DNA from: Planctomycetota bacterium | GTDB lineage: Bacteria; Planctomycetota; PUPC01; DSUN01 | NCBI GenBank assembly: GCA_035527715.1 | Contig: DATKZY010000187.1 | Span: 49,388 to 113,387 of the forward strand | DNA length: 64,000 nt | Reading direction: 5' to 3' | Part shown: positions 5,580 through 59,815 of the stretch, piece by piece | Numbering within the stretch: the stretch's first letter is position 1 | Layout of the letters: each line of letters opens with the position of its first letter | Notes under the pieces: model-generated | What the model saw: only the letters and a program-made list of their open reading frames with translations | What the model was told of the DNA's origin: nothing | The model's database searches: none | Position numbers and translations under genes: made by a program

Positions 5580-7073
5580 ATGGTGCAGGGAATGCCCGAC
5601 GGCCTGCGCGAAAAAGCGATCAGCGGCGCGAAGTGGCGGGTGCTCACCACCTACTCGACGAAGGGCGTGCAACTCGTCGGTGCCGTCATCTTCGCCTGGC
5701 TGCTGGACAAGAATGACTACGGCCTGATGGCCGCCGCGATGGTCGTCGTGAGCCTCATCCGCGCCTGCACCAGCCTCGGCATCCACTACGCCATCATCCA
5801 GCGCCGCGACCGCGTGCAGGAGGCGGTGGACACGGGCCTCGTCCTCCTCCTGGCCACGGGGGCCTTGAGCTACCTCGTCCTGCTGGCCGTGGGGCCGTTC
5901 ACCAAAGCCTATGCTCTCGACAAGGCGCTGATGTTGGCGCTCGGCCTCCTGTCGTTCTTCCGCCCCGTCGCCGCCGTGACCGAGGGCGTCCTGTACCGGG
6001 AGTTCCACTTCGGGCGGCTGTTCGTCGTCGAGGTGGGCAGCATGGTGCTCAGCACGGGCCTGGGCGTCGGGCTGGCCTGGGCGCTGCCGGCGGGCAGCCG
6101 CTACTGGGCGCTCGCAGCCTCGGGCCTCACGCGCGAGGCCCTGCACTCGCTGCTTGGATGGACGGTGTCGCCCATTCGCCCCAAGCTGCGGTTCGACCGG
6201 GGCATGGCCAGGGACCTCCTGCACTACGGTAAGTACCTGTGGGGGGCCGCCCTCGTGATGGTGCTCTACGGCAATCTGGAGCGGCTTGTCCTGGTGGAGC
6301 TGCTCACGGTGGGCGCTCTGGGCCTCTACGCGTTCGCGGCCACCTGGGTGTCGCAGGCGGGGCTGATCAGCGAGACGATCTTCGGCAGCGTGGCCGTCTC
6401 GGTCTACGCGAAGTTGCAGGACGACGTGCCGCGCCTGCGGACGAGCTACTGCCGCATCGTGCGGCTCTCGGCGCTCCTCTCGACCGCGCTGCTGGGGGGC
6501 CTCGTGCTGTTGGCGCCCGAGGCGGTGCCGCTTGCGTTCCCCGTCCGCTGGCTGCCCAGCGTGCCCATCTTCCTGGTGTTCGGGTTGTTCTACCTCGTGC
6601 GGGCGGTGGACACCACGACGGGGCAGCTCTACGTCGCCGTGGGCAAGCCGAAGTACAACATGTACCTCGGCGTCGTGAACCTGGCTGTTCTGGCCGCGGT
6701 TGTCGTGCCGCTGGTGCTGTGGCGGGGCGCCGTGGGCGCAGCCCTGGCCCTCCTGATCGCCCGGGTCGTCACGATGGTCTGCAACGCCTTCGTCCTGCGG
6801 CGCGTGCTCCGGTGTCGGCTGAGACTCCTGGTCCGGGTGGTCACGCCCGCGTTGAGGGCGGCGCTCGTGATGGCGTTCGCGGTGTGTGCGGGCCTCGTCG
6901 CCGCCTATCGGCACTGGGGCCTCATCGGCTGGCTGCCGCTGGGCGGACTGGTCGTGCTGGGCGGCGTCGCCTATGCCGCCGGCATCTTCTTCTTCGAGCG
7001 CGAGCTGTTCCGGGAGGTGGTGACCCTGCTGCGCGACGCGCTGAGGGGCAAGAAGGCGGGGAGCAATGGGTGA
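5580..7073 (+). CDS. Polysaccharide biosynthesis protein / Wzx-like oligosaccharide flippase (MOP superfamily)
   Basis: 497 aa with 12 or more predicted TM helices. The N-terminus (KWRVLTTYSTKGVQLVGAVIFAWLL) is typical of PST/Wzx family proteins. An alternative start lies at ATG 5592. Confidence 0.8.
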   Translation: MVQGMPDGLREKAISGAKWRVLTTYSTKGVQLVGAVIFAWLLDKNDYGLMAAAMVVVSLIRACTSLGIHYAIIQRRDRVQEAVDTGLVLLLATGALSYLVLLAVGPFTKAYALDKALMLALGLLSFFRPVAAVTEGVLYREFHFGRLFVVEVGSMVLSTGLGVGLAWALPAGSRYWALAASGLTREALHSLLGWTVSPIRPKLRFDRGMARDLLHYGKYLWGAALVMVLYGNLERLVLVELLTVGALGLYAFAATWVSQAGLISETIFGSVAVSVYAKLQDDVPRLRTSYCRIVRLSALLSTALLGGLVLLAPEAVPLAFPVRWLPSVPIFLVFGLFYLVRAVDTTTGQLYVAVGKPKYNMYLGVVNLAVLAAVVVPLVLWRGAVGAALALLIARVVTMVCNAFVLRRVLRCRLRLLVRVVTPALRAALVMAFAVCAGLVAAYRHWGLIGWLPLGGLVVLGGVAYAAGIFFFERELFREVVTLLRDALRGKKAGSNG

Positions 7074-8286: not shown

Positions 8287-10434
8287 GTGGCGCCTTTCGC
8301 CGTGCTGGCGGGGGTGGTGCTTCTCACGGCGATCGTGGTGCCGCCGTTCTTCGAGACGCCGGTGTACGACGACTGGTCGTTCGCGCCGCAGGTGCTGCGG
8401 CTGGCCGAGACGGGGCAGCTCCGCTACATGGGCTACAACGTGCCCTGCCTGCTGAGCCAGGTGCTCCTGGGGGCGGGGTGGCTGCGGATCGTCGGGTCGA
8501 GCTTCTCGAACCTGCGGATCCTCAACCTGATGGTCAGCGCGGCGGGCGCGTGCGGGGCGTACGGGGTGCTGGCGGAGCTGGGTTGCGGGCGCCGCAGGAG
8601 CCTGCTGGGCGCGCTCGTGCTTGTGGCGAACCCGCTCTACGTGTTCTTCTCCTACGCCTGGATGACCGATGTGTTCTCATTGGCTTTCATGCTCCTCGCG
8701 TTGTGGGCCTACCTGGTCGCCTTCAGGCGGGGAGGGGGTTGGGCTGCCGCCCTCGCGGCGTTCCTGGCGTTGGTCGCGATCCTCGACCGGCAGACGATGG
8801 CGATGCTGCCGGTGGGGGTGCTGTTGTACCTCGTGTGGCGGCGGCGCGGTGCGCCGTGGGGCCTCTGGGCCGCGGCGGTCGCGCCGCTCGTCCTGGGCTT
8901 CGTGGGGGTGAAGCTCGCCGAGATGATCCCCGACTACCAGAAGACGGGGCTGCCGATGCCGTCGCTCCGCAAGCAGTACGCGGCCGCTCCGCGTGCGGTG
9001 AGCATCGGCCTGGGGTATCTGGCCTTCTCGCTCCTGCCGCTGGGCCTGGCGTACGGGCGGGCGCTGTGGCGTGCCGCGGCGCAGCGGCCCGGGCGCGCGG
9101 TGGTGGCGGTGGTGAGCGCGCTGCTGCTCGTGGCGGCCCTCGGCGCCCCGGGGCCGCGGCTGACGGAGGGCCGGCCGTGGACGTTCGACCTGGCCGCGGT
9201 TGCCTCGCGGGCGAGCGTGCCGTGGATCGAGCGCGGCAGCGGGCTCCTCATCGGGCTGGGCACCGACGTGTTGCCTCGGTCGGCGGGGCTGGCGATCGGC
9301 GCCGCGTCGTGCGTGTGGCTGGCGGTCCTGCTGGTGGCGTCGTGGGGCCGACTGGTCGCGCCCCGGCTGGCGGGCCGAGTGTGCCTCGAGCCACGGGGCG
9401 CGCGGTTCGGCCGGGTGGCCGCCGTGGCCCTCGCCGCGGCGCTGGCGCTCCTCGTGGCCGGGCTGCCGCTGCTGAAGCACCTGGCGTCGAGGCTGGTCAC
9501 CGTCGCCTACGAGCGGGGCGCCGGGCGGGCGATGGGCCTCGACTACTGGCTCGCGACGGCTCGCGTGGCGACGGTCCACGCGGCGTTGGTCCTGGGCGCG
9601 GTGTTGGCGTTCGGCCTCAGCGAGTTGGGTTGGCAGGCGGCCGCGCGGCGCTCCGCGGCTTGGGCGGGCCGGCTCCGGGGCGTGTGGGTGCTGTGGGGCT
9701 TTGTCGAGCTCTTCGTCCTGGCGGTGCTCGTGGGCTTCGTCGGCGGCTTCGTCGGCGTGGTCGTGCTCCGGTGCCTCTGGCGCTGGCGCCGTGGGAAAGC
9801 GGAAATCCGGAATCCGGAATCCGAAATCCGAAACGGGGAGTCGGGGCCACTGCCCGACGGGCGAGCGTGGCTCGTGCTCCTGCCCGCAGGCATCTACGCC
9901 GTGTTCCTCGTCGGGTTGATGAGTCGCTGGGACATCTTTCCCCGGTACTTCCTGCCGCTGCTCGTGCCTGCCGCGCTGCTGGGTCTCGTCGTCGGGCGCG
10001 GGGCCAGGCCGTCGTGGCTCGCGCCCGGTCTGGCGTTCGCCGCCTTCCTTGTCTACGCGTGGGTGCGGACGGACCTCTACGTGACGCGGGTCGTGGCGAC
10101 GGAGCGGCTGCGTCGGGAGCTGGTCGCCGAGGGCATCCCGCCGAAGCAGATCCGCGCGGGCCTGGAGATTGACGGCTGGCACTGGCGCTGGTACTGCCTC
10201 GACCACCCCGACGAGGGCGGCACGACGACGGGGCAGGCGTGGTGGCCCGGAGGCCTGACCCCCGCACTGGTGGAGAACTACGTCATCTCCGACCGTCCCG
10301 CCCCCTTGAACATGTGGGGGATAGACCTGTCGAACTACGAAGTCCTGCGCACGGAGGCGGTTCGGGCGAGGCTCTGGCCCCGCCCGTGCCCGCTCTACGT
10401 GATGCGCCGCGTGCCGCTCCTGGCCCCCGACTAA
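8287..10434 (+). CDS. Large polytopic membrane protein, GT-C/GT39-like glycosyltransferase family
   Basis: The translation from the GTG at 8287 begins VAPFAVLAGVVLLTAIVVPPFF and has many TM helices. The track ORF starts at 8086, but its first 67 codons look non-coding and include the heptamer array. The protein contains an in-frame heptamer array at 9801..9834 (see that entry). Confidence 0.6.
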   Translation: MAPFAVLAGVVLLTAIVVPPFFETPVYDDWSFAPQVLRLAETGQLRYMGYNVPCLLSQVLLGAGWLRIVGSSFSNLRILNLMVSAAGACGAYGVLAELGCGRRRSLLGALVLVANPLYVFFSYAWMTDVFSLAFMLLALWAYLVAFRRGGGWAAALAAFLALVAILDRQTMAMLPVGVLLYLVWRRRGAPWGLWAAAVAPLVLGFVGVKLAEMIPDYQKTGLPMPSLRKQYAAAPRAVSIGLGYLAFSLLPLGLAYGRALWRAAAQRPGRAVVAVVSALLLVAALGAPGPRLTEGRPWTFDLAAVASRASVPWIERGSGLLIGLGTDVLPRSAGLAIGAASCVWLAVLLVASWGRLVAPRLAGRVCLEPRGARFGRVAAVALAAALALLVAGLPLLKHLASRLVTVAYERGAGRAMGLDYWLATARVATVHAALVLGAVLAFGLSELGWQAAARRSAAWAGRLRGVWVLWGFVELFVLAVLVGFVGGFVGVVVLRCLWRWRRGKAEIRNPESEIRNGESGPLPDGRAWLVLLPAGIYAVFLVGLMSRWDIFPRYFLPLLVPAALLGLVVGRGARPSWLAPGLAFAAFLVYAWVRTDLYVTRVVATERLRRELVAEGIPPKQIRAGLEIDGWHWRWYCLDHPDEGGTTTGQAWWPGGLTPALVENYVISDRPAPLNMWGIDLSNYEVLRTEAVRARLWPRPCPLYVMRRVPLLAPD
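9801..9834. repeat. Heptanucleotide tandem array GGAAATCC GGAATCC GGAATCC GAAATCC GAAAC, in-frame inside a CDS
   Basis: Period-7 repeat of the same GGAATCC/ATCCGAA family found at 1395. It encodes AEIRNPESEIRNGE. Confidence 0.8.
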
Positions 10435-10888
10435 GTGCTTCGTTTCGCAATTGCCGTGACGTATGTTCGCCGCCGAGACGAAGCACTTCCATAGGGGCTA
10501 CCGCCCCTCTGGTGTTGCGCGGTGCTGCACCTGCTCGCGCCGCTCCACTGTCCCCCCAAGCCCCCCGCAGAGTGGCCGCTTCGGGGCGCTTGATACGTCA
10601 CTGGAAATCCGGATGCGGCCACTGAGCGCCCCCGCCACAGAATGCCAAGTCCAGGGAATGGAGGCTGGCACTCTGTGGTGGCACGCGGAGCGCCGGGAGG
10701 TGGCGGAACGCGTCTTGCGGAGGCGTAAGCTGCTGCCGTTGGAGCAGTTATGGCGGGGCAGCCCCTGGGGCGCCGCCTGCTCAGGTTGGGAGACACAGGA
10801 TGCCAACCCCAGGGGTACGCGGTTGGCATTCTGTGGCGGAATCGCGGCGGGGCAGGGGGGGCCGTCGCGTTGGATGAAAGGCGGGACA

Positions 10889-10897
10889 TATGGTAGA
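10889..10897 (+). promoter_or_regulatory. Putative extended -10 promoter element TGGTAGAAT about 9 nt upstream of ATG 10907, suggesting a leaderless or near-leaderless mRNA
   Basis: It lies in an AT-richer patch, atatggtagaattactgcgATG, within a 470-bp intergenic region. There is no SD sequence. Confidence 0.3.
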
Positions 10898-10906
10898 ATT
10901 ACTGCG

Positions 10907-11845
10907 ATGAGCACGAGCGCTCCAGCACAAGCGGCGGAGGGAGCGGGCCGATGGTTGGCGCTCCTGGCGGCCATGCGCCCGCACCAGTGGACGAAGAACC
11001 TGTTAGTCTTCGCCGCGTTGCTCTTTGCCAGGAAGTTCCTGGAGCCGGAGGCGGTTCGCTTCATCCTCCTGAGCGTGGCGGGGTTCGCCATCTTCTGTGC
11101 GGCGTCGAGCGCGTCGTATCTCCTGAACGACGTGTTGGATGCGGAGGCCGACCGGCAGCATCCGCTGAAGCGGCTGCGGCCCGTGGCGAGCGGGGCGCTG
11201 CCGACGGGCCGGGCGCTGGGGGTCGGGGCGCTGCTGGCGGCTGGGGCGGTGGCCGCGGGGTTCGCACTCGGCGTGCCGTTCGGCGCCGTGGTCGCGGCCT
11301 ACCTGGTGCTCCAGGTCGGCTATTCGCTGGTGCTCAAGCACGTGGTGATCCTGGACGTGTTGTGCATCGCGGCGAGCTTCGTGCTGCGGGCGGGCGCGGG
11401 GGCGCTGGTGATCGGCGTGGCGCTCTCCCACTGGCTGCTCATCTGCGCGGCGCTCCTCGCGCTCTTCCTGGCCCTGGCGAAGCGGCGGCACGAGCTGGTG
11501 GAGGTGGCGGAGGCATCGAGCCACCGGCGGAGCCTGGCCGACTACACGCCGCAGATGCTCGACCAGATGATCGCCGTGGTGACGGCCTCGACGCTGATGG
11601 CCTACACCCTCTACACGATTGACCGGGAGACGGTGGCGAAGTTCGGCACCGACAACCTGAAGTTCACCATCCCCTTCGTCCTCTACGGCGTGTTCCGATA
11701 CCTCTACCTCGTCTACGCGCAGCGCGGGGGCGGCAATCCGTCGCGACACCTGTTGACCGACAAGCCGCTGCTTCTCGACGTCTTCCTCTATGCCCTCACC
11801 AGCGCCTGGATCCTCTGGCGCTGGGGCGGGAGCGGAGCCCCATGA
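10907..11845 (+). CDS. UbiA-family prenyltransferase, decaprenyl-phosphate phosphoribosyltransferase (DPPR synthase)-like
   Basis: 312 aa with about 8 TM helices. The motifs NDVLDAEADRQHPLKRLRPVASG (Asp-rich site) and KNLLVFAALLFA are characteristic of the Rv3806c-like UbiA subfamily. Confidence 0.75.
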   Translation: MSTSAPAQAAEGAGRWLALLAAMRPHQWTKNLLVFAALLFARKFLEPEAVRFILLSVAGFAIFCAASSASYLLNDVLDAEADRQHPLKRLRPVASGALPTGRALGVGALLAAGAVAAGFALGVPFGAVVAAYLVLQVGYSLVLKHVVILDVLCIAASFVLRAGAGALVIGVALSHWLLICAALLALFLALAKRRHELVEVAEASSHRRSLADYTPQMLDQMIAVVTASTLMAYTLYTIDRETVAKFGTDNLKFTIPFVLYGVFRYLYLVYAQRGGGNPSRHLLTDKPLLLDVFLYALTSAWILWRWGGSGAP

Positions 11846-12927
11846 GCAAAGTCGCCGTCCTCAAGGCCACGCCCGAGACCGTCCTCGACGACTACGGTCG
11901 CCTGCTGGGCCTGGCCGACGTGTCGGCTCATCTGCCCAAGGGCCGCGAGACGGCTCTGAAGATCAACATCTCCTGGCACCGCTTCTACCCCGCGTGCTCG
12001 ACGACCCCCTGGCAGCTCGAGGGCGTCATCCGCGGCCTCGTGGCCGCCGGCTACCCCCCGGAAAACCTCTACGGCGCCCACAACCGCACCGTCGTCGTCA
12101 GCGCCCGGAAGGGCGAGGTCGCCAACAAGCACAAACCCGTCCTCGAAAAATACGGGGTCCGCAACGTCCACCTCTACGAGAAGGGCGAGGAGTGGGTGCG
12201 CTTCGAGCCGAAGCAGCACAAGTTCCACGTCCTCCACGAAATCTTCCCCGACGGCGTCAAGATCCCCAAGCGCTTCCTCGGCAGCAACATCGTCCACCTG
12301 CCGACCATGAAGACACACGTCTTCACCACGATGACGGGCGCGATGAAAAACGCCTTCGGCGGCCTGCTGAGCGAGCGGCGGCACTGGACCCACAGCCGCA
12401 TCCACGAGACGCTGGTGGACCTGTTGGCCATCCAGAAGGAGATTCACCCGGGCCTGTTCGCGGTGATGGACGGCACGTTCGCGGGCGACGGCCCGGGCCC
12501 GCGGTGCATGGTGCCGCACACGCCGGGCTACATCCTGGCGAGCGGCGACCCGGTGGCCATTGACGCCATTGCGGCGAAGATGATGGGCTTCGACCCGCTC
12601 GGGCTCGACTTCCTCCGCCTCGCCCACGAGGACGGGCTCGGCTGCGCCGACCCGCGCGAGATCGAGGTCGTGGGCGAGGACATTGCGGGCGTGAACTTCG
12701 GCTTCCGCGGCAACCAGAACACCTTCGCCAGCCGCGGCCAGAAGCTCATTTACTGGGGGCCGCTGAAGTTCCTCGAAAGGCTCCTGCTCCGGACCTTTCT
12801 CGTCCCCTGGTCCTACGCCGCCTCGATCCTCTACCACGACTTCTACTGGTATCCCTTCATCGGCCGGCGACGGGTGCGCCAGGCCCTGAAGACACCCTGG
12901 GGGAAGCTTTTTGAGCGCTACGAGTGA
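11842..12927 (+). CDS. DUF362-like domain protein
   Basis: 361 aa and soluble. The ATGA overlap with the previous gene indicates coupling. Sequence features are KINISWHRFYPACSTTPW and GDGPGPRCMVPHTPGYILASGDPVAIDAIAAKMMGF. The family assignment comes from memory of DUF362 and is not certain. Confidence 0.6.
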   Translation: MSKVAVLKATPETVLDDYGRLLGLADVSAHLPKGRETALKINISWHRFYPACSTTPWQLEGVIRGLVAAGYPPENLYGAHNRTVVVSARKGEVANKHKPVLEKYGVRNVHLYEKGEEWVRFEPKQHKFHVLHEIFPDGVKIPKRFLGSNIVHLPTMKTHVFTTMTGAMKNAFGGLLSERRHWTHSRIHETLVDLLAIQKEIHPGLFAVMDGTFAGDGPGPRCMVPHTPGYILASGDPVAIDAIAAKMMGFDPLGLDFLRLAHEDGLGCADPREIEVVGEDIAGVNFGFRGNQNTFASRGQKLIYWGPLKFLERLLLRTFLVPWSYAASILYHDFYWYPFIGRRRVRQALKTPWGKLFERYE

Positions 12928-12997
12928 CACGGCGGGGCGTCGAGAGGCGGCCGCTGCCACCGCCGCGGACGCGAAGCCCAGGACGGCGCGCGGCGAG

Positions 12998-14836
12998 ATG
13001 GCGTTGCTCGTCGCCATTCTCGCGGTGGCCGCCGCGCTCCGCCTGTGGGGCATCGGCCACGACCTGCCATTCGTCTACTACGGCGACGAAGTCCACAAGA
13101 TGAACCTCGCGATGGGCTTTGGGACCGGCGACCTCAACCCCCACTGGTTCCACAAGCCGGCGCTGTATATGTACACCCTGTTTCTCCAGTTCGGCGCGTA
13201 CTTCCTCGGGGGCTGGCTGCTGGGCGTGTTTCCGAACGCCGATGCCTTCGCCGTGCACTACTTGCAGGACAAGACGGTGTTCGCCCTCTGCGGCCGGCTC
13301 ACCTCGGCCGCGTGCGGCATCGGGTGCGTGCTGGTGCTCTACCGGCTCGCGCGCCGCCACTACGGCAGAGCGACGGCTCTCGTGGCCGCGGGCCTCCTGT
13401 CGGTCGCCTACGCCCACGTGCGTTCGTCGCACTTTGCGAAGGCCGACCAGCTCGCCGCGCTCTTCACCCTGCTCGGCGCGCTGTTCATCTTCCGGATCGC
13501 GGAGGCCGGGCAGTGGCGCGACTACTTGCTGGCCGGCCTGTTCCTGGGGCTCGGCACGGCCTCGAAGTACACGCCGATCCTGCTCGCCGTGCCGCTCTAC
13601 GTGGCCCACGTGGCCTACTGGCGGCGCAGCGAGGCCCCGTGGTGGAGCAAGGTAGCGGGCGCGCGGCTCTGGGCGGCGGCGGGCATGCTTCTCCTTGCCT
13701 TCTTCGTGGCGTCGCCGTACAACTTCCTCGACTCGTTCTGGCTGCGCGAGAACGTGCTCCCGCTTCTCGGGCTGGGCAAGGCCAGCAACCTCTACCACGC
13801 GCGGGGTCCCCTGGGCGAACAGGGCCTGCCCGCCCGGCTCTGGCGCTGGTCCCAGGTCGTGTTCAGCCCCCACGCCCTCGGCCCCGCGCTGGCGACGGCG
13901 GGCTGCCTGGGGTTGCTCTTCGTCGTCGCCCGCCTTCTGACGGGCTCAAGGCAGGCCGAGCCTGTCGAGGCCCGCCGGCGGCGCCAGGACGTGGTGCTCC
14001 TGGCGTGCATCGCCACGCTGTGGGCGCTGGCCTCGGTGTTGTGGCACGTGTACGAGCCGTGGCTGCTCAACGGCCTCTACCCGTTCTTGTGCCTCAGCGC
14101 CGCCGTCCTGGTCGTCAGCGGCATCGAGCTGGCGTCGCGACGCGTCGCTTGGCTCAAGGAGCGGCAGGCCCTGGCCACCGCGGTCGTGGCCATCGCCCTG
14201 GCCGGCCCATCGGCCGTCTGGTCGGTGCGGCTGGGGTATCTGCTCGGTCTGCCCGACACCCGGACCCTGGCGTGCCGGTGGGTGGAGGCCCACGTGCCGC
14301 CACGCTCACGGCTCCTGCTGGACGAGTACGGCCCCAAGCTGTCGGCCACGCCGGAGAGCCTGGGCGGGCTGCTGGCAAAGGCCAAGGACCTGGAGAATTC
14401 CACGCCGTTCACCTACCATCTCTCGAAGTACTACAAGTATCGCATCCTGGCGGCCCGGTCACCGGGCTACGACATCACGGAGCTCAGCCACCTGTGGTGG
14501 CGCGATGAGCCCGAGGGGGACCGGCTGATCGTCCTGAACAACCCGGAGGACGCGGACTTCGGCAACCCTGCCAAGCCCCGCGGCGCGCTGTCGCTGCGGG
14601 AGTACGTGAGCCGCGGCTACCAGTACGCGGTCATCTGCTCGACCAACTACGCGCGGTATCTCGGGGTCGAGGGAGATTCCCATTACGCCAAGGTGGGCCA
14701 GTTCTACAGGGACCTGATGTCGCAGGGCGAGCCGTTGCACGAGGAGATGCAGTGCCCCGGGCGCAGCCGCGGCCCAACGATCCGCGTCTACCGCCTGCCC
14801 GAGCAGGCCCTCCATGCGGACGGAGGTGGCCCATGA
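12998..14836 (+). CDS. GT-C fold glycosyltransferase family 39-like (ArnT/PMT-like) membrane protein
   Basis: It begins MALLVAILAVAAALRLWGIGHDLPFVYYGDE and has FHKPALYMY (a DKPPL-like loop) and more than 10 TM helices. An alternative upstream TTG lies at 12911. The stop overlaps the next gene's ATG. Confidence 0.75.
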   Translation: MALLVAILAVAAALRLWGIGHDLPFVYYGDEVHKMNLAMGFGTGDLNPHWFHKPALYMYTLFLQFGAYFLGGWLLGVFPNADAFAVHYLQDKTVFALCGRLTSAACGIGCVLVLYRLARRHYGRATALVAAGLLSVAYAHVRSSHFAKADQLAALFTLLGALFIFRIAEAGQWRDYLLAGLFLGLGTASKYTPILLAVPLYVAHVAYWRRSEAPWWSKVAGARLWAAAGMLLLAFFVASPYNFLDSFWLRENVLPLLGLGKASNLYHARGPLGEQGLPARLWRWSQVVFSPHALGPALATAGCLGLLFVVARLLTGSRQAEPVEARRRRQDVVLLACIATLWALASVLWHVYEPWLLNGLYPFLCLSAAVLVVSGIELASRRVAWLKERQALATAVVAIALAGPSAVWSVRLGYLLGLPDTRTLACRWVEAHVPPRSRLLLDEYGPKLSATPESLGGLLAKAKDLENSTPFTYHLSKYYKYRILAARSPGYDITELSHLWWRDEPEGDRLIVLNNPEDADFGNPAKPRGALSLREYVSRGYQYAVICSTNYARYLGVEGDSHYAKVGQFYRDLMSQGEPLHEEMQCPGRSRGPTIRVYRLPEQALHADGGGP

Positions 14837-15603
14837 CGGCTTCCGGGCGCGACGGCGCCGCCGCGGGGGCGCCGGCAGGCCTGGCGCTCTCGATCGTGAT
14901 CCCGGCGTACAACGAGAGCGCCGACATCGAGGCCGCGATGGAGGCCGCCGACGCCTACCTGCGCGAAGCCGGGCTGCACGGCGAGGTGGTCGTGGTGGAC
15001 GACGGGAGCACGGACGACACGGCGCAGCTCGTGGCCCGCTACGCCGAGCAGCACCCGGTGGTGCGCCTCCTCCGCAACGACCGAAACCGCGGCAAGGGCC
15101 ACTCGGTGCGGCACGGGGCGCTGGACGCGCGCGGCCAGATCATCCTCTTCAGCGACGCCGACCGCTCGACCCCGTTCAGCGAGGCCCCCAAGCTCCTCGC
15201 GGCGATCGGGTCGGGCGGAGCCGACGTCGCCATCGGCTCGCGGGCGCTCTCGGAGTCCCGGCTCGAGCGGCCGCAGCCCTGGTTCCGGCGAGTCATGGGC
15301 TGGGTGTTCCGCAACCTGGTGCGCCTCATCGTCTTGAGAGGGTTCCGAGACACCCAGTGCGGGTTCAAGGCGTTTCGTGCCGAGGCGGCCCGCGAAGTCT
15401 TCCGCCGCCAGACCCTCGAGGGCTTTGCCTTCGACGTCGAGGCCCTTTGGATCGCACGGCACTTGGGGTATCATATTAGGGAAGTGCCTGTGCGTTGGCT
15501 GGACTCGCGCGACTCGCGGGTCCATCCCGTGCGCGATTCGGCTCGCATGTTTCTCGATCTCGTGCGCATCCGCCTTCGGGCCCTGCGCGGCGTGTACCGG
15601 TAG
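14833..15603 (+). CDS. GT2 polyprenol-phosphate glycosyltransferase (DPM1/ArnC/GtrB-like)
   Basis: LSIVIPAYNESADI...[12 protein letters not shown]...ILFSDADRSTPF...QCGFKAFR is the classic DPM1-like GT2 pattern. GGAGGTGG is its RBS. It is translationally coupled to the upstream GT39-like gene. Confidence 0.85.
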   Translation: MTASGRDGAAAGAPAGLALSIVIPAYNESADIEAAMEAADAYLREAGLHGEVVVVDDGSTDDTAQLVARYAEQHPVVRLLRNDRNRGKGHSVRHGALDARGQIILFSDADRSTPFSEAPKLLAAIGSGGADVAIGSRALSESRLERPQPWFRRVMGWVFRNLVRLIVLRGFRDTQCGFKAFRAEAAREVFRRQTLEGFAFDVEALWIARHLGYHIREVPVRWLDSRDSRVHPVRDSARMFLDLVRIRLRALRGVYR

Positions 15604-15620
15604 GTTGTCAGGGGCCGCCC

Positions 15621-16979
15621 GTGTTCCGAGTGCCCATCTTCGTCGCCTGGCTGGCCATCGTCGTGCTGGTCACGATCCGCAGGCCGTTCTTCGGCTCCCT
15701 GGTGATCCTCGTGCATTACGTGCTCCGCGACGTCCTGGTCGCCGAGACCTACTGGTGGTTCCGCCACAACAGCAACTTCGAGCTCCTCTATCTGGCCACA
15801 GTCGTGGGTGTGCTGACCACGCGGGGCGGCCGCCTGGGAGAGTTCATGCCGTCCGGCCCCGTGGACTGGGGGGTGCTGGGCTTCCTGTTCGTGCTGGTCG
15901 CCGCCGCGCTGGTCAACGGGGTCGTGGTCGTGGGCCACAAGTACATTGACCTGTACTTCAAGGCCATGGTGCTGTACTTCCTGCTGTCGCGGTTGGCCGA
16001 CACGCCGCGGCGGGTGACCACTGTGGCCCTCTGCCTGGTGTTCGCCACGGGCTACCTGGCGTACGTGGCGTGGCGCAAGTACCGCACCGGCGAGCTCACC
16101 ATCGCCCGGCCGTACTGGTTCTCCAGCTTCCACGAGTTCGGGCTCCAGATCATCATCACTCTTCCCTTGGCCGGGGCGCTCGTGCTGGCGCGGTTCCGTC
16201 CCTACGTGCGCGTGCTCCTGTTCGCGCTGATCCCCCTCTTTGTCCTGATGGCCCTGCGTTCGTACTCGCGTTCCGCCTACCTGGGCGCGGGTCTGGGGGT
16301 GGCCATGCTGCTCTGGCACTACCGGCGCCATTGGTACCTCGCGTTCGCTGCCGCGCCGCTCGTCGTGTATGCTGTGCTGCACCAGCCGGCGCGCGTCAGC
16401 GCGCGGCTCGAGAGCATCTGGACCCACAAGACGGCCGAGGGCTCGGTTGACACCTCGATCGAGATGCGGCTGGAGCAGATGCGCACCGCCATGAACGTCC
16501 TCTCCTCCCACCCCGTGCTCGGCATCGGCCCGCGCCAGTTCTTCCAGCAGTACGATCAGTATGCTAACCCAGAGGACTTCGGCCAGCACGAGTGGACCTA
16601 CACGATGCACAGCGTGCCCCTGCTGATCCTGTGCGAGGAGGGGATACTAGGCTTTGCCGTCTACTATGGGCTGATCGTCTTCGGCGCGATCCGCGCCGCC
16701 AGGCTCGCGGTGCGAAGGTCCCGCGACGTGCCGGGGCTCGAAACGGTCGGCATTGTTGGCGTCGGCGCGCTCATGGGCTATCTGGCCTACCTCGCCTACA
16801 GCCTCACGCAGCCGACCATGTGGACGATCAACATCTACGGCACGGTGGCGCTCGTCGAGGCGGCGCGCCGCGTGGTCGTCGCCCACTTCCGTGAGGCGGC
16901 GGAGGAGCGCGAGACCGTGCCGAGCGCTGCGCCCGGCTGGGCCCCGTCGCAGCCCACGACCCAAGTCCTCTTCCCCTGA
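15621..16979 (+). CDS. O-antigen ligase / O-antigen polymerase family protein (Wzy_C domain)
   Basis: It is polytopic. The Wzy_C-like signature LMALRSYSRSAYLGAGLGVAMLL is followed by a periplasmic loop and more TM helices. It starts at GTG. Confidence 0.7.
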   Translation: MFRVPIFVAWLAIVVLVTIRRPFFGSLVILVHYVLRDVLVAETYWWFRHNSNFELLYLATVVGVLTTRGGRLGEFMPSGPVDWGVLGFLFVLVAAALVNGVVVVGHKYIDLYFKAMVLYFLLSRLADTPRRVTTVALCLVFATGYLAYVAWRKYRTGELTIARPYWFSSFHEFGLQIIITLPLAGALVLARFRPYVRVLLFALIPLFVLMALRSYSRSAYLGAGLGVAMLLWHYRRHWYLAFAAAPLVVYAVLHQPARVSARLESIWTHKTAEGSVDTSIEMRLEQMRTAMNVLSSHPVLGIGPRQFFQQYDQYANPEDFGQHEWTYTMHSVPLLILCEEGILGFAVYYGLIVFGAIRAARLAVRRSRDVPGLETVGIVGVGALMGYLAYLAYSLTQPTMWTINIYGTVALVEAARRVVVAHFREAAEERETVPSAAPGWAPSQPTTQVLFP

Positions 16980-17000
16980 TGCCCCGCGAGGAGAGCGCGT

Positions 17001-17972
17001 GTGCGATACCTGGTCACGGGCGGCGCGGGCTTCATCGGCTCCCACCTCGTTGAGGCGCTCCTCGCCCGCGGCGGCGAGGTGGACATCGTGGACGACCTCT
17101 CGACCGGGCGCGCCGCCAACATCGAGCCGCTCAAGAGCGACCCGCGGTTCCACTATCACATCGACTCGGTGATGAACGGCCCGCTGGTTGCGGAGCTGGT
17201 GGACGAGGCGGATGTGGTGTTCCACCTTGCGGCCGCCGTGGGCGTCTTCCTGGTGGTCGAGAGCCCCGTCCGCACCATCGAGACGAACGTGCGCGGCACC
17301 GAGACGGTGCTGCGCCACGCCGCCAAGAAGCGGCGCAAGGTGCTGCTGGCCTCCACCTCCGAGGTCTACGGGAGCACGGTGAGCGCGCGCTTCCGCGAGG
17401 ACGACGACCTGGTGCTCGGCCCGCCTACTCAGGGGCGTTGGAGCTACGCGTGCTCGAAGGCGCTCGACGAGTTCCTCGCCCTCGCCTACCACCGCGAGCG
17501 CGGGCTGCCCGTCGTCATCGCGCGCCTCTTCAACACCGTGGGGCCGCGGCAAACGGGGCGCTACGGCATGGTGATCCCGCGCTTCGTCGCCCAGGCCCTC
17601 GCCGGCGGGCCGATCACCGTCTACGGCGAGGGCACGCAGACCCGCGCCTTCTGCCACGTGGGCGACACGGTGCGCGCGCTGGTCGGCCTCGCCGGCGACG
17701 AGCGGGCCGTCGGCCAGGTCTTCAACGTCGGCAGCGACCACGAGGTCACCATCAACGACCTCGCCGAGCGCGTCCGCCGCATCGTCAACCCCGAGGCCCC
17801 CATCGTGCACGTGCCCTACGACGAGGCATACGCCCCCGGCTTTCGCGACATGCTCCGCCGCGTGCCTGACATCACGAAGCTCCGCCAGTTCCTCGGCTTC
17901 GAGCCCTCGATGCCCATAGACGGCATTATCGAGAGCGTCCGCGACCACATTGCGGCCCACGGCGACCGATGA
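17001..17972 (+). CDS. NAD-dependent epimerase/dehydratase, UDP-glucuronate decarboxylase (UXS/ArnA-C)-like
   Basis: MRYLVTGGAGFIGSHL (GxxGxxG), ASTSEVYG and YACSK (catalytic YxxxK) are present. GAGGAGAG is the RBS before GTG 17001. Confidence 0.85.
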   Translation: MRYLVTGGAGFIGSHLVEALLARGGEVDIVDDLSTGRAANIEPLKSDPRFHYHIDSVMNGPLVAELVDEADVVFHLAAAVGVFLVVESPVRTIETNVRGTETVLRHAAKKRRKVLLASTSEVYGSTVSARFREDDDLVLGPPTQGRWSYACSKALDEFLALAYHRERGLPVVIARLFNTVGPRQTGRYGMVIPRFVAQALAGGPITVYGEGTQTRAFCHVGDTVRALVGLAGDERAVGQVFNVGSDHEVTINDLAERVRRIVNPEAPIVHVPYDEAYAPGFRDMLRRVPDITKLRQFLGFEPSMPIDGIIESVRDHIAAHGDR

Positions 17973-17974
17973 GG

Positions 17975-18023
17975 AAATGCGGATTGCGGAATCCGGATTG
18001 CGGAATGCCGAATGCCGAATGTG
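17975..18023. repeat. Heptanucleotide tandem array of 7 units: AATGCGG ATTGCGG AATCCGG ATTGCGG AATGCCG AATGCCG AATGTGG
   Basis: It starts 3 nt after the TGA of the epimerase gene and fills the spacer before the GT4 gene. Confidence 0.85.
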
Positions 18024-18079
18024 GCACAGCCGCCCCCGGCTGTGCTGCCACAGGCAAGGGCGCCTGTGCCACACGCGCG

Positions 18080-19174
18080 GTGCTGCAATTCGTAGACGCG
18101 CTGCTCCGCGGCGGGGCCGAGCGGCTGCTCGTGGAGTTGGCTGTGCGCCTCGACCGCGCCCGCTTCGCCCCCGCCGTTGCGTGCTTCCGTCAGGAGGCGT
18201 TCGGCGCCGAGCTGGCCGCCGCGGGGCGCACGGTGCACGTCGTCCCAAAGCGGCGCGCGTTCGACGTCGGGTTGCTCTTCCGCCTCACGCGCCTGTTGCG
18301 CCGCGAGAAGATCGCCGCCGTGCACGCGCACGACCTCCAGTCGGCCACCTACGGCCTGCTGGCGGGGGTCGTGGCGAGGGTGCCCGTGGTGCTGACGGTG
18401 CACGGCCTGGGCATCTTCCGCCAGAAGCGCGCGGCCTGGCTTCTCCCGCGCCTGGGGCGATGGCTCGCCCGCGTGGTCTTCGTGGGCCACTGGCTCCAGC
18501 GCGCCGCGGCCGACGAGTTCGGCGTCCGTCCTCGCCGCCCGATGGTCGTGCACAATGGGGTGGACCTCTCCGCGTTCCAGCCCGGCCCGCCCGAGCCGGA
18601 GCTGCGGGCCGACATGCGGGTGGGGGAGGGGACACTGGTTGTCGGCACCGTGGGCAACCTGAGGGCGGTGAAGGACTATCCGTGCCTGCTTCGCGCCTTC
18701 GCCGTGGCCCGCGCGCGCGCGGCGAATGCGGTGCTGGTGTTCGTGGGCGAGGGGGCGGAGCGCCCGGCCCTCGAGGCCCTGGCGCGCGAGCTCGGCATCG
18801 AGCGCGCCGTGCGCTTCGCCGGGGCGAGGAGCGACGTGGCGCGCCTGCTGCGCCTCTTCGACATCTTCGCCCTCTCGTCGCAGACCGAGGGCATCTCGGT
18901 GGCGCTCCTCGAGGCCATGGCCACGGGCCTCCCCGCCGTCGTGACCCACACGGGCGGCAACCCCGAGGTCGCCATCGAGGGGCGGACGGCGCACCTCGTG
19001 CCCGTCGGCGACCCGGCGCAGATGGGCGAGGCGCTCGCCAGGCTCCTCGCCGACCCCGCTCGTCGCCGCGCCTGGGGGCAGGCCGCCCGCACGCGCGTCG
19101 AGGAGGAGTTCTCGCTCGACAGGATGGTGCGAGCCTATGAGGCCGTCTACGAGGAACTCACGCGGCGGCGCTGA
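18080..19174 (+). CDS. GT4-family glycosyltransferase
   Basis: From GTG 18080 the translation reads VLQFVDALLRGGAERLLVELA, a typical GT4 N-terminus. The C-terminal part has FVGEGAER...ALSSQTEGISVALLEAMATGLPAVVT. The track ORF starts at 17969 inside the repeat array, and an in-frame ATG at 18008 is also possible. Confidence 0.75.
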   Translation: MLQFVDALLRGGAERLLVELAVRLDRARFAPAVACFRQEAFGAELAAAGRTVHVVPKRRAFDVGLLFRLTRLLRREKIAAVHAHDLQSATYGLLAGVVARVPVVLTVHGLGIFRQKRAAWLLPRLGRWLARVVFVGHWLQRAAADEFGVRPRRPMVVHNGVDLSAFQPGPPEPELRADMRVGEGTLVVGTVGNLRAVKDYPCLLRAFAVARARAANAVLVFVGEGAERPALEALARELGIERAVRFAGARSDVARLLRLFDIFALSSQTEGISVALLEAMATGLPAVVTHTGGNPEVAIEGRTAHLVPVGDPAQMGEALARLLADPARRRAWGQAARTRVEEEFSLDRMVRAYEAVYEELTRRR

Positions 19175-19976
19175 CGAGGTCGCCGTCCTCACCTACCACG
19201 CTCTCGCGGCGCAGGCGGGCGAGCTGGAGCGTCGCCCGGCCGGCACGCGGCTCTACGTCTTCACCCTCGACGAGTTCCGCCGCCATCTCGACCACCTCGC
19301 CGCCGAGGGGTTCACAACAATCTTGATGGCCGACTTCGTGCAGTGGCACCAGGGTGAGGCGAAGGAACTGCCCGAGCGGCCGATCGTCGTGTCGTTCGAC
19401 GACGGCCACCGCAGCCAGGCCGAGCTCGCCCTGCCCGAGTTGCGGCAGCGCGGCCTGAAGGCCATCTTCTTCATCACCGCCGGCCGCGTCGGCGCCGGCG
19501 ACTGGGTCACGTGGGACCACGTGCGCGCGATGCGGGCCGCCGGCATGGAGGTCGGCTCCCACACCCTCACGCACCCGAGCCCTTCGACCCTGGCGCCCGA
19601 CGCGCTGCGCCGCGAGCTGGCCGAGTCGAAGCGCGTGCTCGAGTCGGGGCTGGGCGGGGCCGTGGACTTCGTGGCGTCGCCGACGGGCTACGACAGCCGC
19701 CACTTTGGCCGCCTCGCCCGCGAGGTCGGCTACAAGGCCGCTCTTCAGGGCGTGATCGGCCGCAACCGCCGCTCGACCGGCCTCTTCGCGCTGCGCCGCC
19801 TCGTGCTCAAGCGCTCCTACGGCTTCGAGCTGTTCTGCCGACTGGTGGACCCCGTGCGGCGCGCCTATCGGCCTCTTCGGATGCGGCAGGCGCTCCGCAA
19901 TGCGGCGCGCCGCGCGATCGGCGCGTCCGCCTACGAGGCCATCCGCAGCCTTGTCCTCAAGCGCCGGGGGGACTAG
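19137..19976 (+). CDS. Polysaccharide deacetylase (NodB/CE4) family protein
   Basis: IVVSFDDGHRS (catalytic Asp-Asp motif), HTLTHPS and a His-containing motif are present. The ATG at 19137 overlaps the previous gene by 38 nt, so the start is uncertain. Confidence 0.75.
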   Translation: MRPSTRNSRGGADEVAVLTYHALAAQAGELERRPAGTRLYVFTLDEFRRHLDHLAAEGFTTILMADFVQWHQGEAKELPERPIVVSFDDGHRSQAELALPELRQRGLKAIFFITAGRVGAGDWVTWDHVRAMRAAGMEVGSHTLTHPSPSTLAPDALRRELAESKRVLESGLGGAVDFVASPTGYDSRHFGRLAREVGYKAALQGVIGRNRRSTGLFALRRLVLKRSYGFELFCRLVDPVRRAYRPLRMRQALRNAARRAIGASAYEAIRSLVLKRRGD

Positions 19977-19979
19977 TCC

Positions 19980-21134
19980 GTGGCCATCGCGTTCTGGGTG
20001 CTTGTTGGCCTGGTCGGCTTCGCCTATGCGGGCTATCCGCTGCTGCTGGCGCTGCTGGTGCCGCTCTTCCGCCGGCCGCCCAGAAGCGCCGACGTGACGC
20101 CGAGCGTCACGCTGTTGGTGCCCGCCTACAACGAGGAGCGCTCCCTGGCCGCGAAGCTCGAGACCTGTCTCGCGCTCGACTACCCGCGCGAGAGGCTCCA
20201 GATCCTCGTGCTCAGCGACGGCTCGACCGATGGCACGGCCGGCGTCGCCGCCCGGTACGCCCGGCACGGCATCGGCCTCATGGCCTTCCAGGAGAACCGG
20301 GGGAAGCTGGCCGTGCTGCGCGACGGCCTGGCCGCGGCGACGGGCGAGATCGTGGCCTTCTCCGACGCCGCGTCGCGCCTGCGGCCCGACAGCCTGCGGC
20401 GGCTCGTTCGCGCGTTCGCTGACCCCGCGGTCGGTTGCGTGAGCGGCGTCTACCAGGTGCTGCGCTCCGAGGCTACGCGGCTCGGCGGCGAGGAGGGCTT
20501 CTACTGGAGGTACGAGACGTTTGTGAAGCGTTGCGAGAGCGACCTGGGGAGCATCCTGGGCGCCCACGGCTCGCTCTACGCCATCCGTCGCTCGTTGTGC
20601 CCCGACCTCGGCCGCATCCGCGTCAACGACGACTACGAGATCCCCGTCCACATTGTCGCGGGCGGCCACCGCGCCGTCTACGCCCCCGACGCGGTGGCGT
20701 GCGAGGAGGCGGCGGAGATGGGCGGCTTCGACCGCCGCGTGCGCATCGCCATCGGCAACTTCCGCCAAGTACGCCTCCTGGGCCTGCTGCTGTGGCCGCC
20801 GAGGCCGTGGCTCGTCTTCGGGTTCGTGGCCCACAAGCTCCTGCGGCTTCTGGGGCCGCTATGCCTTCTCGCGGCGCTCGCGCTCAATGTGTTCCTGCCG
20901 GGCCCCGTCTATCGCGTCACGTTGGCCGCGCAGGGGGCCTTCTACGTGGCGGCCGCGGCGGGGGGACTGGCCGGGCGGCGGCTGGCGCGGGCGCGGCTGT
21001 TGAAGCTGCCCTTCTACTTTTGTATGATCAATGCCGCCTACCTGGTTGGCCTGGTGCGTCTCCTGACACGGTCGGGGCGCGTGCGCTGGAACGCCCCGCG
21101 CGGCGGCAATTCCCCCGGCAGGGAAGGGGTCTGA
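19980..21134 (+). CDS. Membrane GT2-family glycosyltransferase (NodC/IcaA/cellulose-synthase-like processive type)
   Basis: It has an N-terminal TM, then TLLVPAYNEE, VLSDGSTDGT and FSDAASR, and a C-terminal TM bundle. It starts at GTG. Confidence 0.8.
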   Translation: MAIAFWVLVGLVGFAYAGYPLLLALLVPLFRRPPRSADVTPSVTLLVPAYNEERSLAAKLETCLALDYPRERLQILVLSDGSTDGTAGVAARYARHGIGLMAFQENRGKLAVLRDGLAAATGEIVAFSDAASRLRPDSLRRLVRAFADPAVGCVSGVYQVLRSEATRLGGEEGFYWRYETFVKRCESDLGSILGAHGSLYAIRRSLCPDLGRIRVNDDYEIPVHIVAGGHRAVYAPDAVACEEAAEMGGFDRRVRIAIGNFRQVRLLGLLLWPPRPWLVFGFVAHKLLRLLGPLCLLAALALNVFLPGPVYRVTLAAQGAFYVAAAAGGLAGRRLARARLLKLPFYFCMINAAYLVGLVRLLTRSGRVRWNAPRGGNSPGREGV

Positions 21135-32223: not shown

Positions 32224-32231
32224 GGACCGCG

Positions 32232-33173: not shown

Positions 33174-33186
33174 AACCTGCGGGAGG
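33158..33186. repeat. Palindromic element family B: 29-nt perfect hairpin CCTCCCGCAGGTT-tga-AACCTGCGGGAGG whose loop is the stop codon of the GT2 gene
   Basis: A 13-bp perfect stem. A second copy at 61262..61290 has a compensatory base-pair change. There is no U-tract, so it is not a classical intrinsic terminator. Confidence 0.75.
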
Positions 33187-33208
33187 CTGAGACAAGGGGT
33201 GAGCCAAC

Positions 33209-34420: not shown

Positions 34421-34434
34421 AATGGGAGAAGGCA

Positions 34435-34560
34435 GTGCGAAATGTAAAATGCAAAAGGCAAAGTGCAAAATCCAGAACACACCTGGGGCTAGGGGAGTAA
34501 GCGACATCGGGGCTCACCATTTTGCCTTTTGCACTTTGCCTTCTGCATTTTGCATTGGGA
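34435..34560. promoter_or_regulatory. AT-rich long imperfect inverted repeat immediately upstream of the B12-radical-SAM gene. It could be an operator/promoter or an RNA hairpin.
   Basis: The arms are gtgcgaaatgtaaaatgcaaaaggcaaagtgcaaaatcc and cattttgccttttgcactttgccttctgcattttgcattggga, separated by about 45 nt. It is the only strongly AT-rich patch in a 70% GC locus. Confidence 0.4.
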
Positions 34561-34570
34561 TTTCTCCGCG

Positions 34571-35953: not shown

Positions 35954-36166
35954 TGGGCAAGTCAAGATGCTCACCCCCTCCCGTCCGGAGTGGTCTGAGC
36001 GCCTTGACTCAGCTCCACAACGAGGGTTCAGGAGAGCCACATGTCATTGCTGTGTATATGGTTGTGGCTCCGTCCGCGGCGCCGGTCGTCGGCCCGCCAA
36101 GATGTTCACCCCCTATTGCGCGCGCGTGAGCATCTTGAACACCTTGAGTTCGAGGTCTGACCCCGA

Positions 36167-39051: not shown

Positions 39052-39058
39052 CGCCGCC

Positions 39059-59798: not shown

Positions 59799-59815
59799 AT
59801 TAAGGAAGACCCCCT

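Follow-up and report, generated by a model that had tools for sequence, protein, structure and literature searches.

Kelly et al. (2024, PNAS, PMC11127046) have described widespread three-component systems, made up of a polyprenyl-phosphate 5-phosphoribosyltransferase (PPPRS), a flippase and a membrane glycosyltransferase of the GT-C type, which add alpha-pentofuranoses to glycans outside the cytoplasm. In the prototype, the ORF15-ORF14-ORF12 set of Citrobacter youngae O1/O2, with or without ORF13, a UbiA-fold PPPRS acts on phosphoribosyl pyrophosphate (PRPP) and polyprenyl phosphate, and the GT-C is encoded next to it. ORF13, an epimerase of the short-chain dehydrogenase/reductase (SDR) family, converts the donor to xylofuranose (Xylf) (PMC11127046). 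In loci for arabinofuranose (Araf)-containing glycans, homologs of DprE1/DprE2 are found and are expected to convert the donor to Araf, and the arabinosylation of Pseudomonas aeruginosa pilin is an earlier case cited in the same paper (PMC11127046). The mycobacterial decaprenylphosphoryl-arabinose (DPA) pathway (Rv3806c, Rv3807c, DprE1/DprE2 and the Emb/Aft transferases) has a homologous first enzyme and follows the same logic, in that a lipid-linked pentofuranose donor is used by a GT-C outside the cytoplasm. Here we describe a related gene cluster from a Planctomycetota bacterium (GenBank assembly GCA_035527715.1, contig DATKZY010000187.1, positions 49,388 to 113,387 of the forward strand; this whole stretch of 64,000 nucleotides is called the window below). 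The cluster is likely to be a lipid-carrier glycosylation module that works like the pentofuranose systems of Kelly et al. 2024 and that lies in an exosortase-associated exopolysaccharide (EPS) locus of the Wzx/Wzy type. Its UbiA homolog is, by homology, a phosphoribosyltransferase of the decaprenyl-phosphoryl-5-phosphoribose (DPPR) synthase type, and we propose that the DUF362 protein encoded directly after it is an accessory enzyme, an epimerase or oxidoreductase, that acts on the lipid-linked pentofuranose. The kind of system is already known; its variant features are the absence of a fused phosphatase, GT-Cs of the PMT/TMEM260 type rather than GT136, an obligatory GT2 enzyme resembling dolichol-phosphate-mannose synthase (DPMS), and an accessory protein with a LarA fold.

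Open reading frames (ORFs) were judged by the support from GC content at third codon positions (GC3), and families were assigned by Pfam and NCBIfam profile scans that took in essentially all GC3-supported ORFs of the window. An earlier note on this DNA had placed the UbiA, DUF362, GT-C, GT2 and O-antigen-ligase-like genes at their positions and in their families, and both are upheld by these scans. The central genes of the module are the following:

10907-11845, plus strand: polyprenyl-phosphate 5-phosphoribosyltransferase (PPPRS/DPPR-synthase family, UbiA fold), from its NCBIfam matches, PDB relative and PRPP-contact residues
11842-12927, plus strand: soluble DUF362 protein with a LarA-like fold (PF04015, 92.8 bits)
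12998-14836, plus strand: GT-C (PMT/PMT_2; PMT_2 68.4 bits, PMT 40.7 bits) with about 8 or more hydrophobic segments
14833-15603, plus strand: soluble GT2 of the DPMS/ArnC type (PF00535, 98.9 bits)
15621-16979 (start possibly 15495), plus strand: Wzy_C membrane protein, O-antigen ligase or polymerase-like (PF04932, 69.3 bits)

The UbiA homolog had been suggested to be of the DPPR-synthase type, a suggestion that was to fall if the protein grouped with menaquinone or heme O prenyltransferases. It scores 261.1 bits against NF008977 (cut-off 234) and 226.3 bits against NF008978 (cut-off 207), both of which are curated equivalog models for DPPR synthase, versus 31 bits for heme O synthase and 48 bits for a generic prenyltransferase model; the NCBIfam models for MenA and for 4-hydroxybenzoate (UbiA) prenyltransferase gave no match. 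The sole PDB match at E <= 1e-3 is M. tuberculosis Rv3806c (8j8j, E = 7e-36), with 34% identity over 244 aligned residues. These scores, together with Rv3806c being the sole PDB relative, rule out a quinone or heme prenyltransferase. The cryo-EM study of Rv3806c defined the residues that contact the Mg2+ and the pyrophosphate, ribose and 5-phosphate of PRPP, and reported that other UbiA enzymes do not conserve the sites that bind phosphoribose (PMC10994848); in the window protein these are kept. The window protein carries the NDxxDxxxD Mg2+ motif, and ten of the twelve PRPP-contact residues are identical to those of Rv3806c (R22, K28, Y70, N73, D77, K87, R90, Q135, Y138 and K143), the remaining two being the conservative changes Y157 to F and K208 to R (Rv3806c numbering), the former of which also occurs in some mycobacteria (PMC10994848). 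The contact residues are mostly invariant among 15 PPPRS homologs. An identical 312-residue protein (100% identity, from a Planctomycetota bacterium metagenome-assembled genome) is already named decaprenyl-phosphate phosphoribosyltransferase by NCBI. A longer version of the ORF (10463-11845, 460 aa) was rejected as a spurious extension: its first 148 residues look non-coding, and the NCBI protein and the homologs have about 305-326 residues.

The earlier note had considered such a pathway unusual outside actinobacterial cell walls, a view that does not hold given the widespread systems of Kelly et al. 2024, the existing NCBI name and the at least 558 relatives of the window PPPRS, from at least eight phyla, among GTDB species representatives. 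The best 80 of these relatives come from Planctomycetota, Brocadiia, many Acidobacteriota, Aminicenantes, Methylomirabilota/Rokubacteria, Armatimonadota, Acidimicrobiia and others, and the subclade occurs in Nitrospirota as well.

The window shares with the Citrobacter three-component systems an optional redox or epimerase gene, a location in a surface-polysaccharide locus and the swapping of parts between related loci. The differences are in the components. The prototype PPPRS has a fused HAD phosphoribose phosphatase, whereas the window PPPRS is a protein of 312 residues that matches NF006088, a HAD-UbiA fusion model, only in its C-terminal UbiA part (profile positions 183-450) and therefore lacks the fused phosphatase domain; there is also no separate phosphatase nearby. 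The MATE flippase of the prototype has no counterpart in the window, and its GT-C, ORF12 of family GT136 (annotated as EpsG-like), is replaced here by PMT_2/PMT proteins and in the relatives of the locus by TMEM260-like ones. The accessory protein is an SDR (ORF13) in Citrobacter or, elsewhere, DprE1/E2, whereas here it is a LarA-fold DUF362 protein. The module here always includes a DPMS/ArnC-like GT2, unlike the Citrobacter systems, and the host pathway is Wzx/Wzy and exosortase-associated, in contrast to the ABC-transporter O-antigen synthesis of Citrobacter. Compared with the mycobacterial DPA pathway, neither DprE1/DprE2 nor a PAP2 phosphatase nor GT-Cs of the Emb/Aft family are seen, and the setting is a planctomycete EPS locus rather than the cell-wall core.

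The DUF362 gene is present after the UbiA gene as the earlier note had said, but it was treated there as a bystander, whereas no other gene of the cluster is as informative. Its start overlaps the end of the PPPRS gene in an ATGA at 11842-11845, an arrangement indicating translational coupling. The fold of DUF362 matches LarA and the hydride-shuttling racemases/epimerases at about 10% identity, and it matches no phosphatase family. LarA enzymes invert the configuration at a secondary alcohol centre; the reaction passes through a keto intermediate by proton-coupled hydride transfer and involves residues R75, H108, H174, K184 and H200. The LarA family includes sugar-acid 2-epimerases. Many His, Asp and Lys residues of DUF362 are invariant, and its invariant R82, H110, H159, K169 and H184 have a LarA-like spacing, although this equivalence is a spacing argument only. 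Compared with members of the LarA superfamily (which includes D-gluconate 2-epimerase), DUF362 is shorter (361 versus about 420 residues) and has a different helical C-terminus; the known substrates of LarA are free 2-hydroxy acids, whereas the substrate proposed for DUF362 is a lipid-linked sugar. The protein matches PF04015 and not DUF2088/LarA_N in Pfam, and in about 2.1 Mb of related loci that were searched for a LarA/DUF2088 gene only DUF362 paralogs turned up. In the literature library searched we found no functional study of DUF362, and no publication tying DUF362, LarA or nickel-pincer enzymes to polyprenyl-phosphoribose.

The DUF362 subfamily is highly conserved, with 72-75% identity across Planctomycetota, Nitrospirota, Armatimonadota, Thermodesulfobacteriota and Bacteroidota and an overall range of 60-85% over at least six phyla. 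The motif KTH-x9-K-x14-H is invariant family-wide, and its core, KTH-x9-KNAFG-x14-H, is kept in a ferredoxin-fused paralog of 30% identity. In a Methylomirabilota metagenome-assembled genome (L077:10899-13541) the DUF362 gene contains an intein with a LAGLIDADG homing endonuclease; the intein begins with CVHPD, ends with ILHN, has Thr at the +1 position and sits exactly between the K and the T of LPTMKTH. Inteins typically occupy functional cores, and the LPTMKTH motif that bears this one is likely to be the functional core of DUF362.

The gene order around the PPPRS was compared with that of related loci, to which we refer by L numbers:

L082/L083, PPPRS 83% identical to that of the window: methyltransferase, GT-C, acyltransferase, GT4, Wzx, methyltransferase, PPPRS, DUF362, GT-C, GT2, Wzy_C, SDR resembling UDP-glucuronate decarboxylase (UXS), GT4, deacetylase, GT2, methyltransferase
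L087 (Brocadiia), PPPRS 72% identical: near-identical order, in which a 370-residue SDR of the Epimerase family (SDR2) replaces DUF362 between PPPRS and GT-C
L003, PPPRS 69% identical: PPPRS, GT-C, SDR2, GT2

PPPRS, either DUF362 or SDR2, GT-C, GT2 and Wzy_C thus recur as a set in L082/L083, L087 and L003, with the order rearranged in L003, and PPPRS and GT-C occur together in a glycan locus in the window (as UbiA-DUF362-GT-C) and in L082, L087 and L003. The best NCBIfam matches of the L087 SDR2 act on lipid-linked substrates.

Across genomes, a DUF362 homolog lies directly downstream of PPPRS in 33 of 80 loci from several phyla, and, seen from DUF362, PPPRS alone recurs strongly as a neighbour (15 of 81 loci). 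Every other neighbouring family was found in at most 7 loci, including a flippase-like LPG_synthase_TM protein, UXS-like SDRs and unrelated housekeeping genes. In Nitrospirota (L085) the two genes form an isolated pair in a housekeeping context. The link between PPPRS and DUF362 is real and frequent, and it is not obligate. In a Rokubacteria locus (L025:5888-12051) genes for a WecA-like phosphotransferase, UDP-glucose dehydrogenase, a UXS-like SDR, PPPRS and DUF362 are contiguous in this order, and on a Bacteroidota contig (L086:445-3159) DUF362 is followed by UDP-glucose dehydrogenase and BacA. The formation of UDP-glucuronate (UDP-GlcA) or UDP-xylose is recurrently linked with the PPPRS/DUF362 pair.

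The epimerase hypothesis for DUF362 is put forward because of its LarA fold, its translational coupling to PPPRS, the recurrent adjacency of the two genes and the replacement of DUF362 by an NAD-dependent SDR of the epimerase family. That DUF362 modifies lipid-linked ribose, most plausibly by epimerising it, is a tentative proposal, which we regard as one possibility worth pursuing. A more specific version of it would make the DUF362 subfamily a new class of lipid-linked pentofuranose epimerase: a single LarA-fold enzyme, possibly dependent on a nickel-pincer cofactor, that converts polyprenyl-phosphate-ribofuranose to its arabino or xylo epimer and so stands in for DprE1/DprE2 and for SDR epimerases like ORF13, to which it is not homologous. 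This version is doubtful as it stands.

The GT-C gene at 12998-14836 and the GT2 gene after it overlap in an ATGA at 14833-14836 preceded by GGAGG, so the translational coupling that had been claimed for them is borne out. The description of the GT2 as DPM1/ArnC-like is also correct, as its top PDB relatives are DPMS (5mlz, E = 2e-20) followed by ArnC (9hwj, 8vxh and 9bhc). Its top NCBIfam matches are AglJ, ArnC, Dol-P-hexose transferase and PpgS, and since the best of these reaches 64 bits against cut-offs of at least 325, the GT2 falls below every named equivalog cut-off and its sugar specificity cannot be named. It probably makes a second polyprenyl-phosphate-sugar donor, to judge from these relatives. 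The pairing of a GT2 polyprenyl-phosphate glycosyltransferase with a GT-C, with an SDR of the UDP-GlcA decarboxylase type and a deacetylase-family gene nearby, is also that of Arn and GtrA/B/V-type glycosylation. The ArnB aminotransferase, the formyltransferase and the ArnE/F or GtrA flippase of those systems are not seen here, and ArnC and GtrB have C-terminal transmembrane helices, whereas the window GT2 has no transmembrane segment.

Four further genes of the window contribute to this comparison:

1575-3158, plus strand: GT-C (PMT_2, 32.6 bits), conserved in all syntenic loci
5580-7073, plus strand: MOP-superfamily flippase, Wzx-like (Polysacc_synt_3, 165.8 bits), conserved in L082 and L087
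8287-10434 (open from 8086), plus strand: GT-C (PMT_2/ALG10-like; PMT_2 35.7 bits) with about 13 hydrophobic segments
17001-17972, plus strand: extended SDR of the UDP-glucuronate decarboxylase (UXS/ArnA C-terminal) type, from its similarity to human UXS1

The GT-Cs of the window all score above the PMT_2 cut-off of 26.1 bits and are polytopic, with 8-13 hydrophobic segments. They match PMT_2, PMT and DIE2_ALG10, those of the related loci are TMEM260-like, and none among them matches EpsG. Only the GT-C at 1575-3158 is orthologous across loci, being 48-51% identical to L082 2387-3958 and L087 4242-5840. The GT-C at 8287-10434 is a locus-specific insertion, for which the syntenic L082 and L087 lack a counterpart and BLAST gives no match to the other GT-Cs, and the one at 12998-14836 fills the slot held by the TMEM260-like GT-C in related loci without BLAST similarity to those of L082, L087 and L003. 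GT-Cs are therefore swapped and inserted like cassettes between near-syntenic loci, as expected for glycan diversification. The insertion at 8287-10434 also created or enlarged a non-coding gap of 470 bp 5' of PPPRS (10435-10906), which automatic gene callers read through in frame (JGI calls a 410-residue UbiA protein) and which may hold a promoter of the downstream module's own.

The Wzy_C protein scores 73 bits against the exosortase-associated O-ligase model TIGR03097, under its cut-off of 188; its gene is conserved after GT2 in L082 and L087 and in L003 lies distally, at the module's end. The best PDB relative of the SDR at 17001-17972 is human UXS1 (E = 1.4e-51, about 40% identity over the aligned region), and the STSEVYG, YxxxK and QTRAF motifs are kept. 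The protein probably makes UDP-xylose or a UDP-4-keto-pentose, and its assignment as an ORF13-type epimerase was downgraded because of the full UXS/ArnA decarboxylase signature. Homologs of about 60% identity are encoded directly upstream of PPPRS in L005, L025, L036, L055 and L077, and in the window a polysaccharide deacetylase gene comes next. Within the window, the protein at 5580-7073 is the sole candidate for a flippase, and what it flips may be the repeat unit and not the lipid donor.

The best reading of the locus, in line with the suggestion of the earlier note, is that polyprenyl-phosphate-sugar donors, among them a pentofuranose derived from PRPP, serve glycosylation in the periplasm, with several GT-Cs available. 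In this pathway, PPPRS would move 5-phosphoribose from PRPP to polyprenyl phosphate at the cytoplasmic face of the membrane, a step for which the homology is strong, and the 5'-phosphate would then be removed by some phosphatase. DUF362 might next epimerise the lipid-linked ribofuranose at C2' or C3' through a transient keto intermediate, chemistry that can be likened to that of DprE1/DprE2 in mycobacteria and of the SDR ORF13 in Citrobacter. The donor would be flipped across the membrane, and a GT-C, for which the protein at 12998-14836 is the best candidate, possibly that at 8287-10434 or 1575-3158, would hand the pentofuranose, outside the cytoplasm, to an acceptor that could be a glycan or a protein. 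In parallel, the GT2 at 14833-15603 and its three paralogs from the continuation of the locus described below could supply other polyprenyl-phosphate sugars to the remaining GT-Cs, and the sugar of the GT2 may derive from the product of the UXS-like SDR at 17001-17972. Ribofuranose (Ribf), Xylf and Araf are all candidates for the pentose.

Several observations weigh against this account. At the level of sequence, phmmer and two profile searches of PDB sequences found no match between DUF362 and LarA. About half of the PPPRS loci have no DUF362 within 10 kb, and in the survey made from the DUF362 side (80 metagenome loci, 64 of them with enough upstream sequence) PPPRS was adjacent in only 11 of those 64, which rules out DUF362 as an obligate partner of PPPRS. 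The acidobacterial PPPRS loci have GT4s nearby and not a GT-C. The TMEM260-like GT-Cs beside PPPRS in L082, L087 and L003 are 46-50% identical to each other, and the window has no ortholog of them; its own GT-Cs are of the PMT_2/PMT type, unlike the EpsG-annotated GT136 of the prototype, and their donor specificity cannot be read from sequence. Finally, the window scans found neither a 5'-phosphatase of the HAD/PRP or PAP2 kind nor a dedicated flippase of the small GtrA or MATE kind.

The lack of a HAD or PAP2 protein in the cluster, although the pathway needs one (PMC11127046), raises the alternative that DUF362 is itself the missing phosphoribose 5'-phosphatase, in place of the HAD PRP domain of ORF15 or of Rv3807c, and that the transferred sugar is ribofuranose. 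DUF362 is soluble and translationally coupled to PPPRS, as such an enzyme might be, and its invariant His, Asp and Lys residues could bind metal or phosphate. However, its fold is that of racemases and epimerases and of no phosphatase family, and L087 and L003 replace it with an NAD-dependent SDR, which is incapable of dephosphorylation. As those two loci also have no recognisable phosphatase, the activity is evidently supplied from elsewhere, and we consider a phosphatase role for DUF362 quite improbable. Another explanation leaves the chemistry of DUF362 aside and concerns what feeds the adjacent GT-C. The GT2 and the UXS-like SDR could form an Arn-like route from UDP-GlcA through a UDP-pentose to a polyprenyl-phosphate-pentopyranose and on to the GT-C, with PPPRS and DUF362 merely co-located and serving another glycan or a conserved envelope component. 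It would account for the GT-C being translationally coupled to GT2 and not to PPPRS, for DPMS and ArnC being the best solved relatives of that GT2, for the SDR keeping all UXS/ArnA decarboxylase motifs with a polysaccharide deacetylase gene next to it, and for the occurrence of PPPRS-DUF362 alone in housekeeping contexts without a GT-C (Nitrospirota L085, Acidobacteriota). Yet neither an ArnB-type aminotransferase nor a formyltransferase is encoded in the window, the UXS-like SDR forms one contiguous stretch with PPPRS and DUF362 in Methylomirabilota/Rokubacteria loci that have no GT2 among the annotated neighbours, and PPPRS, GT-C and GT2 stay together through the rearrangement in L003. The two routes are moreover compatible, as at least four each of GT-Cs and GT2s are encoded in the locus, and PPPRS and DUF362 being mere bystanders of the GT-C is unlikely.

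The earlier note had also raised arabinose, by analogy with Corynebacterineae, and PPPRS is indeed the committed enzyme of the DPA pathway (PMC10994848), whose later enzymes have homologs, DprE1/E2, that accompany PPPRS in Araf-containing Gram-negative systems (PMC11127046). A mycobacterial-type DPA pathway with DprE1/DprE2 encoded elsewhere in the genome is nonetheless very improbable. Neither the 64-kb window nor the 10 kb beyond its 5' edge contains a DprE1/DprE2-like gene, that is, an FAD_binding_4/ALO-type oxidase or a DprE2-like classical SDR, so arabinose specifically finds no support. The single FAD enzyme in the vicinity is of the amine-oxidase/CrtI family, no GT-C gave an Emb/Aft-type family match, and no family of the size of DprE1 recurs beside PPPRS in 80 loci.

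The pentofuranose module described here overturns nothing about where pentofuranose glycosylation occurs. It does indicate that lipid-linked pentose donors made from PRPP are a common feature of Planctomycetota, Acidobacteriota, Methylomirabilota and further phyla that have been little studied, the envelope and EPS chemistry of which is almost unknown, and the swapping and insertion of GT-Cs follow the same diversification logic as the creation of serotypes in pathogens. For DUF362, a large family without a known function, the locus provides a concrete and testable hypothesis of function. If DUF362 were a polyprenyl-phosphate-ribose epimerase, it would add a third way, unrelated to the others, of carrying out the reaction that anti-tuberculosis benzothiazinones block by acting on DprE1. 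It would also be the first function for the DUF362 family and would extend the hydride-shuttle chemistry of the LarA type from free 2-hydroxy acids to membrane-bound sugar donors.

The module is part of what is essentially a single plus-strand polysaccharide locus that runs from 1.5 kb to about 50.7 kb of the window, which has about 70% GC and contains a DUF1559/N-methyl protein that points to Planctomycetota. By Pfam and NCBIfam, the locus encodes methyltransferases, GNAT/FemAB-like acyltransferases, GT4 and GT2 glycosyltransferases, the Wzx-like flippase, polysaccharide deacetylases, three radical-SAM enzymes, an ATP-grasp protein, a DUF3473 deacetylase, an exosortase (EpsH), an EpsI-like DUF3485 protein, a PilZ protein and a Bac_transf priming transferase. 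Over 11.4 kb the window is matched with 100% identity by a JGI metagenome contig (L169), which at 10991-20950 continues the locus past position 1 of the window and adds the following:

5' continuation on L169: a 513-residue membrane protein without a family match, a methyltransferase and three DPMS/AglJ-like GT2 paralogs of about 253 residues
also on the 5' continuation on L169: a PMT_2 GT-C (557 residues, about 3 kb past the edge), a DUF3473 deacetylase and the amine-oxidase/CrtI-family FAD oxidoreductase

Window and L169 continuation together thus bring the locus as a whole to at least four GT-Cs and at least four GT2s of the small soluble kind. The fourth, partial GT-C that had been reported at the edge of the window could not be verified there: the minus-strand ORF at the 5' edge (3-404) is the N-terminus of the 513-residue membrane protein without a family match, and the plus-strand ORF at 59804-64000, which runs off the 3' end, encodes a secreted protein of more than 1398 residues with NPCBM, a middle region matching hydrazine synthase alpha (HZS_alpha) and FGE-sulfatase domains.

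Some other genes of the window deserve mention. No credible motif of PEP-CTERM acceptor proteins was found in the window, where the exosortase (EpsH), the EpsI-like DUF3485 protein and the PilZ-domain protein are encoded in this order at 46623-49723 on the plus strand, an arrangement that hints at control of the exosortase/EPS system by cyclic di-GMP. Inside the polysaccharide locus, at 31099-37525 (plus strand), are genes for one SPASM radical-SAM enzyme, two B12-binding radical-SAM enzymes and one ATP-grasp protein, a set that suggests unusual sugar or peptide modifications, and the related locus L003 also has a B12-binding radical-SAM gene. A protein of 1607 residues without a Pfam match is encoded in a region of 76% GC at 38575-43882 (plus strand), and its gene is followed by one for a trypsin-like protease. 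Its N-terminal membrane segment resembles that of the 158-residue ORF immediately upstream, which suggests that the two have paralogous N-termini. Just outside the polysaccharide locus, the minus-strand gene at 51875-54736 encodes a protein of 953 residues that has a TIR domain at its N-terminus, WD40 repeats at its C-terminus and a double zinc ribbon, and that may act in defence or signalling.

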